Below are positions 5,875 through 34,215 of a stretch of DNA of 35,499 nt, one piece after another. This stretch comes from a virus. Taxonomy: Duplodnaviria > Heunggongvirae > Uroviricota > Caudoviricetes. Under the pieces are notes generated by a model that saw only the letters and a program-made list of their open reading frames with translations, was not told where the DNA came from and did no database searches. The DNA lies in IMG/VR virus record IMGVR_UViG_2718217860_000003, one strand, 5' to 3'. The number at the start of each line of letters is the position of its first letter. The first letter of the stretch is position 1. The translations under genes and the position numbers were made by a program.

Positions 5875-6282
5875 TTATTGATGCTTGTTGCGTTTGCGAG
5901 CCTCTAATAGCTCGGTGAACAGGCGATTAAAATTCTCAACGCGGGCGCGGAGTTCGCTGAGTTGTGCTTGTTGCTCTGATTTAGGAAGTGCGCGATACAA
6001 ACGCAGCATCTCTAACTCATCTTCCGATAAGTCTAGGGTACTATCGAGTGAAACAGGGGGAGCTGGTGTTTTGTCCTCGTCGCCAAACAGTATCCAGGTT
6101 GGTGAACATTGCAATACCTCGGCGAGGCGATGCAAATTTTGCCCGCGCGGGGCTGTATGGTCACTTTCCCATAATGAAATTGATGAGCCAGATACGCCAG
6201 CAGCTTTGCTTAAACCGTTTTGACTTAAGCCTACCTGCTTACGTCTTTCTCTAATGCGTTGACCTAAAGTTTTCTCGTTCAT
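5875..6282 (-). CDS. dicA: DicA-like repressor (XRE-family HTH, CI functional analogue)
   Basis: 135-aa product from Met18 (MNEKTLGQRIRERRKQVGLSQNGLSKAAGVS...LQCSPTWILFGDEDK...), closely resembling DicA as recalled; divergent from a dicC-like gene. Confidence 0.85.
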   Translation of the reverse strand: MNEKTLGQRIRERRKQVGLSQNGLSKAAGVSGSSISLWESDHTAPRGQNLHRLAEVLQCSPTWILFGDEDKTPAPPVSLDSTLDLSEDELEMLRLYRALPKSEQQAQLSELRARVENFNRLFTELLEARKRNKHQ

Positions 6283-6332
6283 ATTTAGATATCTTAATAA
6301 TCCTTGACTTGAGATTCCTTGAGTGATTAGCA

Positions 6333-6346
6333 TTGAGAAAACTCAA
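6333..6346. promoter_or_regulatory. Operator-like palindrome TTGAGAAAACTCAA in the dicA/dicC divergent promoter region
   Basis: Perfect inverted repeat 14 nt upstream of the dicC RBS (GGAGG); same core as the site at 5798-5809. Confidence 0.55.
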
Positions 6347-6359
6347 TATTGGAGGTGCG

Positions 6360-6587
6360 ATGTTTAAATCAGACGTAATTAATTTTTACGGTACGAAAGC
6401 CAAAGTAGCGAAAGCTGCTGGCGTTGACCCATCTGCTGTTTCTCAATGGCAAGAGCTAGTTCCTGAAGGTCGCGCGATGCGTCTACAGGAGGCATCTGGC
6501 GGCGAGCTTCTGTATGATCCCAAGGTTTATGACGAATATCGTAAGACGAAGCGGGCGGGGCGGTTGAACAATGAAAATCACTCCTGA
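6360..6587 (+). CDS. dicC: DicC-like Cro-type regulator
   Basis: 75-aa product from the internal ATG (MFKSDVINFYGTKAKVAKAAGV...GRAMRLQEASGGELLYDPKVYDEYRKTKRAGRLNNENHS) with GGAGG upstream; divergent from dicA. Confidence 0.8.
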   Translation: MFKSDVINFYGTKAKVAKAAGVDPSAVSQWQELVPEGRAMRLQEASGGELLYDPKVYDEYRKTKRAGRLNNENHS

Positions 6588-7092
6588 ACAGGCTCGTGAG
6601 GCTCTGGATGCCTGGATATGTCGACCAGGAATGACACAGGAGCAGGCGACGATATTAATCACTGAAGCATTCTGGGCTTTGAAAGAGCGCCCGAACATCG
6701 ATGTTCAGCGTGTCACAGATGAAGGTGGCGCGGTTGATCAGCGAGCGCTTGGCGTTAATCGAGTGAAGATATTCGAACGCTGGAAGGCTATCGACACCAG
6801 GGATAAGCGTGAAAAGTTCACGGCGCTAGTGCCTGCAATTATGGAGGCTATCCGGATTAATGATTTCAGGTTGTATCGTGAAATTAGTGACGGAAAAAGC
6901 ATCACGTACATGATCGCCGGGTTAAACAAAGAATATGGCGATGTGGTGGAGTCCGGACTGCTTTTTGCTGATCCTGCCGTAGTGGATCGTGAAACTGACG
7001 AACTTATAGAAAAAGCAATTGCTTTCAAACTTGCGTATCGACAGCAATACCAACAAAAAGCTGGATGGAATTATGAGCCTTCTTTTTGCTGA
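6571..7092 (+). CDS. Hypothetical early protein in the CII position (possibly a YdaT-family regulatory/toxin-like protein)
   Basis: 173-aa ORF overlapping the dicC stop and the start of the O-like gene. The family assignment is from memory only. Confidence 0.6.
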   Translation: MKITPEQAREALDAWICRPGMTQEQATILITEAFWALKERPNIDVQRVTDEGGAVDQRALGVNRVKIFERWKAIDTRDKREKFTALVPAIMEAIRINDFRLYREISDGKSITYMIAGLNKEYGDVVESGLLFADPAVVDRETDELIEKAIAFKLAYRQQYQQKAGWNYEPSFC

Positions 7093-8038
7093 ACGCCCAC
7101 TGGTTATAAACACACAGCTTGCGATGAAGATTGGCTTAAATGAAGCCATTGTGTTGCAGCAGTTGCATTACTGGTTGAGAGATACCAATTCCGGCATGGA
7201 ATGTGATGGTGTTCGCTGGATTTACAACACAACGGAACAATGGCTGGAACAGTTCCCATTCTGGTCAGAGTCAACGTTAAAGCGCGCGTTTGCAAGTCTG
7301 AAAACGCTGGGGCTCTTGCGTTGTGAAAAGCTCAATAAATCAAAGCGCGATATGACCAATTTCTACACGATTAACTATGGGAGCGAGCTTTTAGATGATG
7401 GCAAATTGAGCGAATCCATCGGTTCAAAATGCGCCGCTCCATCAGGTCAAAATGACACGATGGAAGAGGTCAAAATGAAACGCTCCATTGGTTCAAAACG
7501 ACCCAATGTCATCGGGTCAAAATGGCCCGATGATCCTACAGAGAATACAACAGAGATTACTACAGAGAATAAAAACACTTTTCGTCCGGAAGCTTCGCAA
7601 CCGGACCCGCAGACGGCTGAACAGGATTTTTTAATCTGGCACCCTGGCGCAGTTGTGTTTAGTGCGAAAAAACGCCAGTGGGGTAGCCAGGAGGATCTGG
7701 CGTGTGCGCAGTGGATATGGGGGCGGATCGTGGGTCTCTACGAACAGGCCGCCAGTGATGATGGCGAGATCATGCGACCAAAAGAGCCTAACTGGACTGT
7801 CTGGGCCAATGATGTGCGCACAATGCGGATGCTGGATGGCAGAAGCCACAGACAAATTTGTGAAATGTTTGGTCGGGTACAGCGGGATCCGTTCTGGGTA
7901 AAAAACATCATGAGCCCGTCAAAGCTCCGCGAAAAATGGGACGAACTGGTCATCCGCCTGGGGCGTTCACCTGTACAGCGTTGTGTTAATCATATTTCTG
8001 AACCGGATACAGAAATTCCGCCTGGTTTCAGAGGATAA
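7073..8038 (+). CDS. Replication initiation protein (lambda O-like replisome organiser) with internal iterons
   Basis: N-terminal region resembles phage replication organiser N-domains; the gene contains five approximately 23-bp-spaced direct repeats (iterons). Start placed at ATG 7073 (MSLLFAERP...); the track ORF begins at an upstream TTG. Confidence 0.75.
   Translation: MSLLFAERPLVINTQLAMKIGLNEAIVLQQLHYWLRDTNSGMECDGVRWIYNTTEQWLEQFPFWSESTLKRAFASLKTLGLLRCEKLNKSKRDMTNFYTINYGSELLDDGKLSESIGSKCAAPSGQNDTMEEVKMKRSIGSKRPNVIGSKWPDDPTENTTEITTENKNTFRPEASQPDPQTAEQDFLIWHPGAVVFSAKKRQWGSQEDLACAQWIWGRIVGLYEQAASDDGEIMRPKEPNWTVWANDVRTMRMLDGRSHRQICEMFGRVQRDPFWVKNIMSPSKLREKWDELVIRLGRSPVQRCVNHISEPDTEIPPGFRG
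7415..7525. repeat. Iteron array (putative phage replication origin) inside the O-like gene
   Basis: Direct repeats tccatcGGTTCAAAATG / tccatcaGGTCAAAATG / GAGGTCAAAATG / tccattGGTTCAAAACG / tcatcgGGTCAAAATG starting near 7415, 7438, 7461, 7484 and 7509 (spacing about 23 bp). Confidence 0.7.
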
Positions 8039-8501: not shown

Positions 8502-8753
8502 TGAGATTAAAGTTTATTAGTTCAGATATTGATTGGCTCTTTTGTGGAGTAGGGTAGAGTTAGTGTGTTTGTCTGCTTGGTGCCAGCAGCGGATATGTTT
8601 AACAACAGAAAGCATTCAGCATGGTTAGTGGATTTGCAAAGTGGATTAGGATTTGAGAAACTTTGATGAAGTTGTAAAGCTTGTTTCTATAAAAATAGAA
8701 ATTTAACTAATAGTTAAACACACCTCCAGCTTCATTGAAAAGGATTATTAGCT

Positions 8754-9653
8754 ATGATTGATCCACTTATTAGAAACTTACAGAGTGATATTGCACTACT
8801 CCAGCTTTATATCGCGCAACGCAAACAGGCAGGCTTTCATGACATGGAAAGAATAATTGAGTCATTGACCATCTTTATGTTTCGCGCGCTGAAAATGGGT
8901 GAACTGGTAAACATGAATCAGATTAAAGTTAATTTTCCCGCCATTGATTTAGCTGATAATAAAAACATGATAGCAGTTCAAGTTACTACGAATGCAAGTC
9001 CAGCAAAAATTAAAAAAACTATCGAATCTTTTGAGGAAGCAAATGAAATAGGAGAGAGTCTGAAAGATAAATACTCTACTTTATATATTTTTGGTTTTTG
9101 TAAAGCCTCAAGATACCTAACTCCAAGTTATTGTAAAATAATCGACCCCAGCTATTTCGTGAATGAACTTTGCGATAAAGCAGATGAAGATATGGTCCAG
9201 GATATGATTGACGCCATTCGACGCCATCATGATTATACATCATTACATCCATGGAGTGATAAAGATTCACTCGAAATTATACTCAATATTATTAATCGCA
9301 ATGCAATAAAACATCGGATGAGTTGCGAAGGCAGTCTGTCTGATATGCTCACTGGTTTAAAAGAAATTAATGAAGTAATTACAAAAGGAACAATTCAACG
9401 TAAGCAACGTTCAAAATCGATATCTGACTTCAAAGATCAAAGCATGGTGAAATTTATGAGAGGTGTAATGGATGATTTGTCTGTTATTCAAGCCATAGTG
9501 AACAAATCTAAAGTTAACCAAGGTGATATGGTTTATATAAGCCATGAAGATATGATTAATATTGATAAATTAAAAGCTAAAATAGCAAGTGATTCATCAG
9601 AGATTGCAAGGCTAAATAATATTGATATAACACTAAATGTTGTTGATTTATAA
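8754..9653 (+). CDS. Hypothetical protein encoded in an AT-rich accessory island (candidate defence/abortive-infection-type protein)
   Basis: 299-aa ORF in a visibly AT-rich block; no confident family match. Convergent with the membrane protein/methyltransferase operon. Confidence 0.7.
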   Translation: MIDPLIRNLQSDIALLQLYIAQRKQAGFHDMERIIESLTIFMFRALKMGELVNMNQIKVNFPAIDLADNKNMIAVQVTTNASPAKIKKTIESFEEANEIGESLKDKYSTLYIFGFCKASRYLTPSYCKIIDPSYFVNELCDKADEDMVQDMIDAIRRHHDYTSLHPWSDKDSLEIILNIINRNAIKHRMSCEGSLSDMLTGLKEINEVITKGTIQRKQRSKSISDFKDQSMVKFMRGVMDDLSVIQAIVNKSKVNQGDMVYISHEDMINIDKLKAKIASDSSEIARLNNIDITLNVVDL

Positions 9654-9967
9654 TTGTCGATTTAGCAAAACAGAGAATGCTTTGAAAGTTTCACCGAGAA
9701 ATATTTATTGTGAACCTCCTTATTGTTTATCGACTTTTACTCTCCGCTCATTGCAGTACTGTCGGAGAAGGCTACTATGTACAAGAAGCAGCTAACATAA
9801 GCGAGCATCACTATTGATATTAGGAAGAGTATATAAAAACTTCATGCTGAACCTTACAAAAGTAGGTAAACCGGCAATGGCCTAAGTGGCAGGGTCATGT
9901 TGATCCGGCACTGCCGAGCTAATAATTAACAAGCAAATCACTCTTTCTAATAATTTGTTGAAATAAA

Positions 9968-10627
9968 CTAAATATGTATATGTTTACCAACAACCACATA
10001 TGAACTACCTGCTTTGCTCCATGATTTTATTATTTCTAAATTATTATCTGAGCATATTTTACTTACAGTATCCACATCTAATAAACCATAGTAGAAAGCA
10101 TTACGAGAGTTTTGGTATATATACCCATGCAAATGTTTAATACCGCTCTCGTACCTCTTGAAATAAGAACTTTTGTATTGATTGACAATCAGTGCTTCAC
10201 CATCACTCTTTAATAATTCTCTAATCGCACTGAGGACTTTGTGAATTGTGGATTCACATGGAATTGCGGAAAGCACGTTTGCGCAAAGTATGAAATCATA
10301 ATGATTTGTTATTTTATCTATATTTTCATAAGAAACAATATTAGCATTCTTATAGTTATTTATCACGTAATCTGGAATCGTGGTTTGTACACCTCTGATA
10401 ATTTGCACTCTTTCTAGTTGTCTTCTGGAATCTAAAAATGTCACAGTTTCAAATTTATTTACTAATTGTTCTGAATATCTAAGTTTTCCACATCCAAAAT
10501 CAAGGGCATTGCCATTTTTATTAGTGCTTTCAATCTGTTTACAGAGATAGTTAGATGGCATAGTGTGCGGTTTCGCTGCATTTTCTGAACGTATGTTTAT
10601 TCCATTTATTTTGTAATTCAAAATCAA
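9968..10627 (-). CDS. Class I SAM-dependent methyltransferase (not a recognisable DNA methyltransferase)
   Basis: 219-aa ORF with SAM-binding motif I (ALDFGCGKLRYSEQL), an acidic post-I residue (VTFLDSRRQ) and a motif II-like segment (DFILCANVLSAIP). No DPPY/NPPY or PCQ motifs. Confidence 0.75.
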   Translation of the reverse strand: MILNYKINGINIRSENAAKPHTMPSNYLCKQIESTNKNGNALDFGCGKLRYSEQLVNKFETVTFLDSRRQLERVQIIRGVQTTIPDYVINNYKNANIVSYENIDKITNHYDFILCANVLSAIPCESTIHKVLSAIRELLKSDGEALIVNQYKSSYFKRYESGIKHLHGYIYQNSRNAFYYGLLDVDTVSKICSDNNLEIIKSWSKAGSSYVVVGKHIHI

Positions 10628-10633
10628 CCTCGT

Positions 10634-11341
10634 TTAAAAAATATTGTTATTGTTAAAGAATTCTTTTATTTTGCTATCAGGTATTTGTCTTACTTGGCTT
10701 TCTGTTCTTGGTTTAACTGATGCTATGAAAATAAGGAAGTCAAATGCGACAAGAGAAATAATCCACAACCAAAGATTAATTAAAGAGCCAGTAACAGAGA
10801 ATATATTTGTTAATTTGGCGATACTTATTATTAAAATAGTAACAAATGCGATTACTGTATGTTCAAAGAAAACCCAAAAGTAATAAACTTTGTTCCAGAA
10901 AAGTTCAACGTAATGTTTGTCTTTTAACTCTTTAACTTCTGGGTAATACAGTTTACTCATTACCTTGTGAGATTCATCAGTAGTTAATTTTCTCGTAACG
11001 CCTGCAATTTTTGCTAATGGTTTAATAATTAAATGACTATCCCACATCTTCCTTATTCCAATAATTTTTGCTACATTATTATGTAGATCTAAAGCTCCAC
11101 TAATTACTGACCAAAAAACTGAAGATGCAATTGGTAATATGCCAAAGGTTAATATCCATTTAATAAATTCCTCGTAGTCTTTAACGGGGGGGATATACTT
11201 GGCATTAATGCCAACCAATGGCATGTAGCCATAAATGACTAATGATAGGTAAAATATAAATGTAGTAATAAAAGTCGCCTTATGGAGCATAGGCAACATT
11301 TCATTATAACTCTTTGGTGGTTCTAACATTTTACTCTCCAA
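10634..11341 (-). CDS. Integral membrane protein (about 4 predicted TM helices), function unknown; forms an operon with the downstream methyltransferase
   Basis: 235-aa ORF with several long hydrophobic stretches; its stop lies 6 bp from the methyltransferase start on the same strand. Confidence 0.7.
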   Translation of the reverse strand: MESKMLEPPKSYNEMLPMLHKATFITTFIFYLSLVIYGYMPLVGINAKYIPPVKDYEEFIKWILTFGILPIASSVFWSVISGALDLHNNVAKIIGIRKMWDSHLIIKPLAKIAGVTRKLTTDESHKVMSKLYYPEVKELKDKHYVELFWNKVYYFWVFFEHTVIAFVTILIISIAKLTNIFSVTGSLINLWLWIISLVAFDFLIFIASVKPRTESQVRQIPDSKIKEFFNNNNIF

Positions 11342-12014
11342 ACATTCAAAAAAAAGCTAATCTTCTATAATAACGAAATTCAGCTGGCACAATTAAAGAT
11401 TAATTGCCACCAATTTCTTGATTTTATAATTTTATCTAAATGTTTTTGATTAATCTAGTCCTAAAAGAAACCTACTGCATAAATATTTATGCTGATGACC
11501 CACTCCCTGTTCGTTAACACATAGCAACGTTAGTAATGCATCCTAAGTGATCAATATTTTTGCTAGCTTCATCTGCTCGCTCAAAGGGAACTATAATGTT
11601 GGCTTGCGTGTGACTTGGCATGTTTAAAGAAGTGCTGGTGGTGACTGGTTGCTGTTTTCCATTTCCACAGAACAAAATCATAGAAACTATACCCAGTAGT
11701 TGTATTGAATCACTGACGAGACAGCCTCATATTTATCAGGACTGGTGTACGTCCAATACAGGAGGTTGTGGTGCTGGTTCTCAAATGTGCGCTGGCTATT
11801 GCTGCTGTAATGGCAATTTATTGTCTTGCTGTTGTTCTTATGGATCACCTTTCTGATTGATTTCATATTGGCGAGGTAACGGTAGTTAAGTAGAATTGCT
11901 GCGGGTGCTTGAGGCTATCTGCCTCGGGCATCAACACCAAAGGCAGATAGAGAAAAGCCCCAGTTAACATTACGCGTCCGGCAAGACGCTTAACATTAAT
12001 CTGAGGCCATATCT

Positions 12015-12227
12015 ATGCTCTACACACGTAGGTTAGCCTCTTACGTGCCGAAAGGCAAGGAGAAGCAGGCTATGAAGCAGCAAAAGGCGATGCTAATCGC
12101 CCTGATCGTCATCTGTTTAACCGTCATAGTGACGGCACTGGTAACGAGGAAAGACCTCTGCGAGGTACGAATCCGAACCGGTCAGACGGAGGTCGCTGTC
12201 TTCACAGCTTACGAACCTGAGGAGTAA
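12015..12227 (+). CDS. Mok-like leader ORF in frame with hokD (N-terminally extended reading frame)
   Basis: The track ORF starts 19 codons upstream of the Hok Met in the same frame. Confidence 0.35.
   Translation: MLYTRRLASYVPKGKEKQAMKQQKAMLIALIVICLTVIVTALVTRKDLCEVRIRTGQTEVAVFTAYEPEE
12072..12227 (+). CDS. hokD: Hok/Gef-family type I toxin (HokD/RelF-like)
   Basis: 51-aa product MKQQKAMLIALIVICLTVIVTALVTRKDLCEVRIRTGQTEVAVFTAYEPEE with AAGGAG RBS; single TM helix and conserved Hok C-terminus. Confidence 0.9.
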   Translation: MKQQKAMLIALIVICLTVIVTALVTRKDLCEVRIRTGQTEVAVFTAYEPEE

Positions 12228-20073: not shown

Positions 20074-20766
20074 TCAAATCTTATCTAACTCATTATAGGC
20101 TTCGATAATAAAAATTCTGATTTTAATAAGGCATGATTCAATGAAAGGAATTACTTCATGGTCATTCCCATGGAATCTTATTTTTTTCTCTTCGGTAATG
20201 ACTATGTTTAAAGGTACACCATTACCACTTCTTTGTAATTTCCCATTTTCGAAAGTAAAGTCTTCTAATTTTTTGCCATTGATGTGGTTGTTTTTAAAGA
20301 GAATTTTTGCTGAGCTTCCTGCTGTGATTAAACCAAAACCATCTACGCTCACACTTAGGTCTTTAACAGAACTCTCTTCTCTTAAGGGGATTGGTTGTCT
20401 GTGCTTTACTTCATTAGTGAGATTACACATCATTTCCAACCAAGATTCGCCAGTGTGATAATCCTGTATAGAAGTAAAAATTTTATATAATGGAGAAGAT
20501 GATGGTGGGTTTATTTTTAGCGTCTTTGAGAAAAATTTATCAATAAACTCTTTTTTTCCGTAAGGGAAATATATTTTGGGGCGCTCATCATTACTGCGTG
20601 GAGAAATATATTTATCATAGGTATCATTAGCGAGATACTCTAAGGAACTTCGTAAGTTTTCCAAAATAGCTTTGACTTTTACAGGCTTGATATGCTGTGT
20701 CTGTCTCATTATGCCAAGACTTTCTTCAACTTCTTGCAATAAGTCCAACGAGCCTTCTCTAGACAT
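20074..20766 (-). CDS. Hypothetical protein in an AT-rich moron between the lysis cassette and terminase
   Basis: 230-aa ORF in a visibly AT-rich segment, opposite strand to the flanking late genes; no family recognised. Confidence 0.65.
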   Translation of the reverse strand: MSREGSLDLLQEVEESLGIMRQTQHIKPVKVKAILENLRSSLEYLANDTYDKYISPRSNDERPKIYFPYGKKEFIDKFFSKTLKINPPSSSPLYKIFTSIQDYHTGESWLEMMCNLTNEVKHRQPIPLREESSVKDLSVSVDGFGLITAGSSAKILFKNNHINGKKLEDFTFENGKLQRSGNGVPLNIVITEEKKIRFHGNDHEVIPFIESCLIKIRIFIIEAYNELDKI

Positions 20767-32481: not shown

Positions 32482-33070
32482 ATTCGTAATGATTACCTAA
32501 ATACGTTATTCTTTTGTTCAAAAAGTGATTTTTCTATAGGTAGGGAGTATGTTCTTGGATTAAGAATAAAAAATCGCCATGAAAGAGCTTCATGGCGAGT
32601 ACATAAACGTACAAAATATGATGAAAGTAGAGTGGCGTAAGCCACTATATTAAGATATGACAATAGCGAAGAAAAGTAAATAACATTTTATGGGCGTTTA
32701 ATTGTTAATTATAAAAACTAGAGTGCCCGATATTGTTTATCTTGCTTTAAAATAATGTACTCAAACCAAATTTTTGAGCTAAAAGCTCAAATAATATAAA
32801 TGCAATGATAATGTTTAATAAGACAATTAGCTTGCTTTGTATTTTCATTTCGGAATACTGTTAAGTAACTTTGATGACACTAACAATAGATCGGAATTTT
32901 CTTAGAGTCAATGGTCACTGTTTTTGCTTGCAAAGCAAATCTTTTTGGTGGTTATAAGTTTTCTTAATATAGTCACCTATGCAACTTGTTCCGTGTGGAG
33001 ATTAAAGGTTAAAATTTAATGCGAAGATGGAATTATAATATATTTTTTTATAATTAATTTAACCTTAACA

Positions 33071-33169
33071 TCGTTGCTGGCGGCATGGAAGAAATATCGG
33101 GTCTTGCTGATGTCGTGTTGGCACTTCCTTAGTGCGGTTATCGAATGGCCAGCTGTACCTGTGGGGTAA
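33071..33169 (+). pseudogene. Relic 3' fragment of a second tfa gene
   Basis: DNA homologous to the last 33 codons of tfa ([13 protein letters not shown]...IEWPAVPVG*), with no upstream reading frame. Confidence 0.7.
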
Positions 33170-33301
33170 AAACTTTATATGGGTGCTATTTTTATAATAG
33201 CTGGTAAAAACTGGCCGAACTGAAATTCACTGTTGATAAAAAAGATGTGTTTGAGTGTATGTCATTGTTTTCTTAATGGAATCCACTAGAATGCAGCGAA
33301 T

Positions 33302-33499
33302 TTAAGAAGGTGGGTTTTTATTGGAATATAAACTACAATAATGCTCAACTCGTTCGTAGAATTGTTTTTTCTTATTTTTTGGAATGCTAACCATTATATG
33401 CATTATGGGGGCGATACTTCCTGATAATTTACATGATGCATACATTGAAGCAATAAATTCAATATCATTGTCATCAAAGTTAAAGCTTTCTCCGTCCAT
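33302..33499 (-). CDS. Hypothetical small protein (uncertain)
   Basis: 65-aa ORF with AAGGA about 7 nt upstream of the ATG, in an AT-rich gene-poor segment. Confidence 0.3.
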   Translation of the reverse strand: MDGESFNFDDNDIEFIASMYASCKLSGSIAPIMHIMVSIPKNKKKQFYERVEHYCSLYSNKNPPS

Positions 33500-34215
33500 T
33501 TCAATTCCTTATGTGTTTGGCACAACTGATGCTGTATCCCATGAGAATTTATGCAAGTTGTTATGTTTGATTTGATATTGCAATGATAATTGTAGCTAAT
33601 TGTTTTCAATTGAGTGAAAGTTTATTTCGAGTGATTAAGTCGAAAAAAAAGATTTCTCACGGTTAGTAAGCGTATTAGGTTAGTATTCAGATATGAATGG
33701 TATTAATGACTAAATTTTCAATCATATATGGATTTTTATGCTGATGAAGATGTTTTATTTGGCGATTCGTCAAGCATCTTCACTTAAGTAATCGTATATT
33801 TTAAGAGTGCAAAAGAGAAAGGGACAACGTTGCTCGCACTCTGGATTAAATATAGGGTGTTGTTAAACTGCGTTGATACATAATTGTACCGGATATTGAG
33901 TGGTCTGAAGTCCCAGTCATTAAGTAATCGTTTCGTGATATGCCGCAGAAACGTTGTATGCAATAACGTTCTGCGGTTGGCTGATGCACTTTCGAGAGTG
34001 TATTGAATAATTTCAAGCCGTTATTGTTTTTACGCGTAACACCATGAAAAGATTGCTTATCTGTTGGGGTGTTTTTTGGGGCATATATGGGACAGAAATA
34101 GGCCACAGATAGATAGTAAGATCGAACTCAGGATGTTTTTGAAAAAATGTAACTATCTGAAAAAACCTAGAAAGCGCCAAGGAAACCACAGAATGAGAAA
34201 AAACATCTGTGAATT

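Follow-up and report, generated by a model that had tools for sequence, protein, structure and literature searches.

A stand-alone SMEK-domain protein in a Qin-like Escherichia coli prophage is a candidate one-gene defence nuclease

We argue that a 299-aa protein carried as cargo by a Qin-like prophage of E. coli may be a one-gene defence nuclease, acting against phages or other mobile elements, with a control domain specific to its family. Its gene lies at 8754..9653 (+) of a 35,499-nucleotide stretch of virus DNA (IMG/VR record IMGVR_UViG_2718217860_000003), which is called the window throughout. We give this reading a probability of roughly 0.5. It rests on analogy. The N-terminal domain of the protein is SMEK, which is the output arm of a sensor in pAgo and Lamassu systems, and by that analogy it would be an effector nuclease here as well. 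The second domain is found only in this family and is joined to SMEK in every full-length member scanned. The sections below set out the protein, the cassette and prophage slot in which its gene lies, and the known systems with which it must be compared, and then weigh the other roles that one can imagine for it.

The gene and its two domains

The coding sequence is complete (ATG start, 299 aa plus stop). The ORF list places it exactly where the original prediction did, convergent with a methyltransferase operon. An identical CDS is annotated in RefSeq genomes, where the protein is WP_000566845.1, 'SMEK domain-containing protein', and the exact protein sequence is present on 538 public contigs. 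A Shine-Dalgarno AAGGA, read off the sequence at 8740..8744 (+), stands 9 nt 5' of the ATG, and AAAAGGAT at this site shows no change among the aligned copies (6/6). The ORF is judged to be more than chance because it has full-length homologues, a dN/dS of 0.14-0.28 against copies that are 12-24% diverged in nucleotide sequence, and an intact frame in 150 of its 152 E. coli carriers. It is real, intact and under purifying selection. The carriers come from 5426 complete E. coli genomes. Disruption of the frame in close relatives, a possibility that the original prediction had raised against itself, is confined to the 2 remaining carriers, which have a frameshift.

The original prediction could assign no motif to the protein. 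This was mistaken, and RefSeq already annotates one. Residues 5-120 (8766..9113, +) match SMEK_N in both Pfam (PF21941, 80.3 bits against a cut-off of 27, E 1.6e-22) and NCBIfam (NF033859, 106.1 bits against a cut-off of 30, E 6.5e-31). These profile scores and its core motif place the protein in the SMEK_N domain family. The elements of the domain run alpha-alpha-beta-beta-beta-alpha-beta and include the alpha-beta-beta-beta-alpha-beta core fold of the PD-(D/E)xK superfamily. The domain is a Mrr-like member of this restriction-endonuclease (REase) fold. Its core is FPAIDLADNKNMIAVQVTT (aa 61-79, 8934..8990, +), a beta2-beta3 hairpin with D65 and Q76-V-T78. The original prediction had singled out this same compact segment and expected helices on either side of it, and in the AlphaFold model the segment is indeed bordered by helices. 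The full core motif, N-F-P-A-I-D-L...Q-V-T-(S/T)...K, spans aa 60-85 and is also present in PDB 26bh.

E36 (codon 8859-8861), D65, Q76 and K85 (codon 9006-9008) are invariant in 44/44 diverse members, down to 17% identity. N60 is kept in 41/44, and position 78 is T in 41/44 and S in the other 3. An alignment finds the same E/D/Q/K residues in the solved Kordia jejudonensis Mrr domain. Invariance of these four residues across very divergent members is as expected for a putative metal-dependent active site. It must be noted that the motif is not the textbook one. It has the form E...D...Q-x-T, with an invariant Lys seven residues on, whereas the textbook form is D...(E/Q)-x-K, and the canonical Lys is Thr or Ser in every one of the 44 members. 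K85, on the next helix, could stand in for the canonical lysine. Since that lysine is replaced, catalytic competence depends on the putative substitute. A survey of SMEK_N architectures by a word-indexed search with the N-terminal profile returned short fragments only. A separate observation is a SMEK_N-like N-terminus in a protein annotated as TPR-repeat, at 216947-217231 of the Herpetosiphon aurantiacus plasmid CP000876.1. This case suggests that there are more SMEK-plus-sensor architectures beyond APAZ, LmuA and the ~300-residue family.

The rest of the protein is a family-specific helical domain (~aa 145-299, 9186..9650, +). AlphaFold predicts a helical bundle with two short strand pairs. 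Structure prediction had been proposed from the outset as a check, and it delivers models of both the REase-like SMEK fold and the bundle, but with a pTM of 0.53 the arrangement of the two domains relative to each other is uncertain. The C-terminal half had been described as charged and rich in Lys and Asp, and it is moderately so (D 10.7%, K 8.7%, 29% charged). Its conserved positions are the polar residues D169, R182, E192 and K221 together with A184 and G212. Pfam gives no match to this domain even when E up to 10 is allowed, and Foldseek gives no significant match in the PDB. A profile of the domain searched against 1.84 billion representative proteins gave 92 matches only. Nearly all of these are proteins of ~290-320 residues with the domain at the same position, or fragments of such proteins, and SMEK_N precedes it in 44/44 full-length members scanned. 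The two domains therefore make up one fixed architecture in a small family.

Other identities for the bundle were considered and rejected. It contains R182-x4-H187, which recalls a HEPN RNase; the His is not a conserved position, and neither profiles nor the fold support a HEPN identity. It is not APAZ: the match to the PADLOC model Aga_REase-PNTD1-PNTD2 covers profile positions 9-143 of 463 only. Nor is it the C-terminal domain of LmuA, to judge from hhalign against the Citrobacter LmuA (CTD7), which gives a probability of 0.2%.

Full-length homologues of 293-320 aa occur across many Proteobacteria and Bacteroidota, and the taxonomic spread is patchy. Among 50,697 deposited phage genomes none has a full-length member; the one match found covers the N-terminal domain only. 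In the plasmid collection it is on one plasmid only, from Citrobacter. A contig of 3048 bp labelled Streptomyces sp. NPDC088196 holds the gene and its leader in an 87%-identical copy, which suggests contamination of the assembly. Some records of close homologues carry the older name 'regulator', with no evidence attached to it. The family is already in databases under its domain name. In the library of papers searched we found no description of a stand-alone SMEK protein or of its C-terminal domain.

A one-gene cassette in a variable prophage slot

The window is an E. coli prophage of lambdoid, Qin-like type and is integrated beside ynfA/rspAB. Its genes run in the order integrase, exonuclease, dicB, ydfABC, repressor, cro, ydaT-like, replication protein and DUF977/Ren-like, followed by an AT-rich island and then hokD, rem, DUF968, rusA and the antiterminator. 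The island spans ~8502-11500 (3 kb, 32.5% GC), and the SMEK gene is the first gene in it. The gene was predicted to be AT-rich and to lie in an island, and its GC is 33% (GC3 27%) against 47% for the window. Directly 3' of the island is hokD (relF), a type I toxin gene at 12015-12227. In K-12-like Qin prophages relBE sits where the island sits here. Two other AT-rich stretches of the window can be recorded. At 20074-20766 (-), between the lysis and terminase genes, there is a second AT-rich orphan (GC ~34%), a 230-aa ORF with no Pfam or PADLOC match that is another possible cargo gene. The stretch at 32482-34215 (GC ~32-38%) separates the tail-fibre assembly gene from a host MFS transporter gene; it has no ORF of >=100 aa and is probably a decayed prophage end or junction.

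What moves with the gene can be read from its copies in unrelated contexts. We compared copies from another type of E. coli prophage, from integrase islands, and from Pectobacterium and Enterobacter chromosomes. Homology among them begins at window 8565-8582, ~175-190 bp 5' of the ATG. At the 3' end it stops at the stop codon, or includes a further patch of ~50 bp that ends ~100 bp past the stop. Homology is limited to the leader and the ORF, and so the mobile unit is one gene with its own leader. This conserved 5' leader (8575..8753, +) is non-coding and contains a promoter-like TTGATG-N17-19-TATAAA element. The element is likely to be the promoter by its sequence, and a consensus sigma-70 scan gave no call there. 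At the threshold of the tool, that scan detected no strong sigma-70 promoter or terminator around the SMEK gene. In the convergent intergenic region no terminator is predicted, and folding there has z = -0.77. Among 21 loci from different genera there is no gene common to the neighbourhoods. Conservation extends over the upstream 100 bp of the leader (GTGCCAGCAGCGGA...TTAGTGGATTT) as well.

The slot between the DUF977/Ren-like gene and hokD (window 8502-11900) varies among E. coli strains. In E. coli MS14387 it holds a 595-aa DUF4209 protein (6000-7787) that matches PADLOC PDC-S39 with E 8e-103. Further strains have relBE with flxA/ydfV, IS66/IS1, or small DUF7167-type genes. Prophages that are otherwise similar differ at this slot, which is dispensable.

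In this window the SMEK gene shares the slot with the two-gene minus-strand operon with which it is convergent. The operon consists of a class I SAM methyltransferase (9968-10627, -; ORF list and profile search) and a membrane protein (10634-11341, -; ORF list) that has no Pfam or PADLOC match. As a whole (9968-11341) it shares 69% nucleotide identity with its homologue in the K-12 e14 element, ymfD/ymfE. In e14 that pair adjoins lit, the gene for the Lit abortive-infection protease. One other prophage keeps SMEK, methyltransferase and membrane protein together at 82-83% nucleotide identity. One can imagine a restriction-modification pair of SMEK and methyltransferase, but the two are separable both ways. 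A ymfD/ymfE-like pair without the SMEK gene is found in ~283 E. coli genomes, whereas E. coli EC05 and every more distant locus have SMEK without the pair. The enzyme is also of the wrong type, with matches to Methyltransf_12/23/25 and TehB-type (small-molecule-type) families and to no DNA methyltransferase family. Since they occur separately and the methyltransferase is of the small-molecule type, we treat the SMEK gene and the operon as separate cargo.

Close homologues outside this prophage type lie in integrase islands that are not phages, and in defence islands of the chromosome. The Pectobacterium homologue is directly upstream of a CBASS cyclase and 4TM effector. In Citrobacter the homologue lies between a Lamassu operon, directly before it, and AAA_15/AAA_21 genes; that Lamassu is complete alone. 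The homologue is beside SLATT_5 and HigBA in Pseudomonas and adjoins Abi_alpha in Vibrio. Enterobacter has it beside SymE and TacAT, or beside integrases, a resolvase and an AAA_13/SMC_N protein. A PADLOC scan of the 143 proteins within 5 kb of 18 homologues found GajB, DpdF, AriA, PtuA and AbiLi, as well as MADS components, RT-type proteins and several PDC candidates. Genes of Gabija, PARIS and Septu type are among the defence neighbours in other taxa. Ordinary housekeeping genes are among the neighbours too, and in other genomes there are many of them. The slot and the neighbourhoods also contain toxin-antitoxin modules (hokD, relBE, SymE, TacAT, HigBA, CbtA). A defence role argued from such company is guilt by association, and we use it in that sense.

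Comparison with known systems

SMEK has been described in two settings. It is fused to APAZ as a nuclease-type effector in short Argonaute systems (PMC10810196; bioRxiv 10.1101/2023.06.08.544223), and in short Lamassu systems LmuA carries it at the N-terminus, again as the effector (PMC12663957). Weak collateral nuclease activity is reported for the K. jejudonensis SMEK-APAZ/Ago complex (PMC12205087). This activity, described as weak, is the only one published for SMEK.

The likeness to the short pAgo proteins is confined to the N-terminus. The N-terminal domain is homologous to that of the SMEK/Mrr-APAZ protein ('SPARMA', the KjAgo partner, PDB 26bh) with E 1.5e-12, and it matches the PADLOC pAgo-associated model Aga_REase with E 1.1e-20. 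The two proteins have in common the NFPAIDL...QVT(S/T)...K motif, the E/D/Q/K residues and the N-terminal position of the effector. However, the 299-aa protein has no APAZ, and its C-terminus is an unrelated 155-residue helical bundle. It also stands alone, with no adjacent MID-PIWI gene in the window. LmuA of short Lamassu is built on similar lines, with the same kind of N-terminal effector joined to a C-terminal control domain, but the window has no SMC-like LmuB or LmuC gene and the C-terminal profile is unlike LmuA. The protein is not the pAgo-associated SMEK-APAZ protein, because it has neither APAZ nor an Argonaute partner. It is not LmuA either, because its C-terminus is unrelated and LmuB and LmuC are missing.

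The protein also differs from canonical Mrr. It has no profile match to Mrr_cat PF04471 at E up to 1. Its motif reads D...QxT, and the lysine has been moved or replaced (K85), whereas canonical Mrr and AF1548-like proteins have D...(E/Q)xK. Unlike Mrr and the type IV restriction enzymes, it has no DNA-recognition domain for modified bases.

We argue that the protein would work most like the single-polypeptide nuclease defences such as Shedu. Shedu (SduA) is a single polypeptide in which a REase-fold nuclease is joined to a domain for regulation or sensing, and it is found in defence islands and prophages. Its nuclease is DUF4263, whereas here it is SMEK, and the order of the domains is opposite to that of the SMEK protein. 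There is no sequence match to the PADLOC Shedu models. No full-length model in PADLOC v2.0.0 matches the 299-aa protein.

Alternative roles and the proposed function

Since both the prophage slot and the SMEK fold are open to other readings, it is worth considering them before the defence role is spelled out. One can imagine that the gene is selfish, a toxin or addiction module in which a nuclease-like protein is restrained by a leader RNA or by self-inhibition and stabilises the prophage or island. A non-coding leader of ~180 bp always accompanies the gene, toxin-antitoxin modules are plentiful in the slot and around the homologues, and pairing between the leader and the start-codon region is predicted. 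That pairing is without covariation support, however, and the leader has no Rfam match and a weak consensus fold (-6 kcal/mol) with a positive covariation term; no structure in it is supported by covariation. A structured RNA or RNA antitoxin in the leader is therefore without support, and there is no small conserved ORF near the SMEK gene. We consider an addiction module unlikely, while noting that toxin-antitoxin and defence roles are not mutually exclusive. A different scenario is that the REase fold is inert, and that the protein binds DNA or RNA as a regulator or sensor and cuts nothing. All members have Thr or Ser in place of the canonical catalytic Lys, close homologues have been named 'regulator', and REase folds are reused for binding, as in Rpb5 and TBP-interacting protein, which are among the REase-fold matches. 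Against this, E36, D65, Q76 and K85 are invariant across very divergent members, as expected for a metal-dependent active site, and the same residues are found in pAgo-linked SMEK, which is in the effector position and for which nuclease activity is reported (PMC12205087). The 'regulator' names come without evidence. An inert binder is, to our minds, an improbable account of the family.

The remaining alternatives tie the gene to its neighbours. It could encode an enzyme that the prophage itself uses in lytic growth, expressed by read-through from the early-right replication operon, to degrade host DNA or to act on replication or recombination intermediates. The gene is co-oriented with the replication module (cro, ydaT-like, replication protein, DUF977) and directly 3' of it, with no predicted terminator between. 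But the family is missing from 50,697 deposited phage genomes save for one N-terminal-only match, and it has close homologues in integrase islands that are not phages and in chromosomal defence islands. The slot is dispensable and variable among similar prophages, and the gene has its own leader. We find a lytic role quite improbable. The protein could also be an orphan effector that serves another system in trans, such as Lamassu or short pAgo, or that forms a modification-linked pair with the ymfD/ymfE-like operon. SMEK is an effector module of both systems (PMC12663957, PMC10810196), the Citrobacter gene comes directly after a Lamassu operon, and a different E. coli prophage has the whole three-gene cassette at 82-83% identity. 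However, the C-terminal domain matches neither APAZ nor the LmuA that is its neighbour in Citrobacter (hhalign 0.2%), and the window has no PIWI, LmuB or LmuC gene. The methyltransferase pair is found without SMEK in ~283 genomes and SMEK without the pair in EC05 and the distant loci, and the methyltransferase belongs, by its matches, with small-molecule-type families and not with the DNA methyltransferases. A role in trans is very unlikely.

We argue for the one-gene defence nuclease instead. In the scheme that we propose the N-terminal SMEK domain would be the effector, and it is predicted most likely to cut nucleic acid. The C-terminal helical bundle would be a control module that keeps the nuclease inactive. 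The nuclease would be switched on when the bundle senses a phage-derived trigger or drives oligomerisation, and once active it would attack invading DNA, host DNA or both, so that the infection is stopped. Expression would be from the gene's own conserved leader and not as part of a multi-gene system. We infer the nuclease activity, the trigger and the anti-phage phenotype, abortive infection included, by analogy with the systems above. A sensor role for the C-terminal domain is offered purely as conjecture.

The original prediction had taken the protein for a single-gene abortive-infection or exclusion protein, going by its size, AT-rich codons and place in an island. The lack of a conserved neighbour, the one-gene cassette, the defence-type domain and the defence-rich context all agree with it; its premise that the protein is unassignable does not stand. 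It had also held that a confident match to a known phage or housekeeping family would count against it. The profile searches did return a confident domain match, but the match is to a defence-effector domain and aids the interpretation. One can go further, tentatively and at a little under even odds, and suggest an unnamed one-gene anti-phage system in which a SMEK nuclease is gated by a new helical sensor joined to SMEK_N, with D169, R182, E192 and K221 as a trigger-binding site or oligomerisation switch. That these four residues form a second catalytic centre is more speculative.

If the protein turns out to be inactive, or merely a toxin, it is an ordinary prophage cargo gene. If the defence role is confirmed, it would be a compact and self-contained defence gene of 0.9 kb with a 0.18-kb leader. 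It would be a simple model for the activation of a SMEK nuclease, and the sensor domains known so far would gain a new member. The DUF977/Ren-like-hokD slot of Qin-like prophages would then be a place to seek further E. coli defence cargo. It would also mean that the SMEK module, so far described in Argonaute and Lamassu systems as their effector arm, can work alone as well, with a small sensor of its own.
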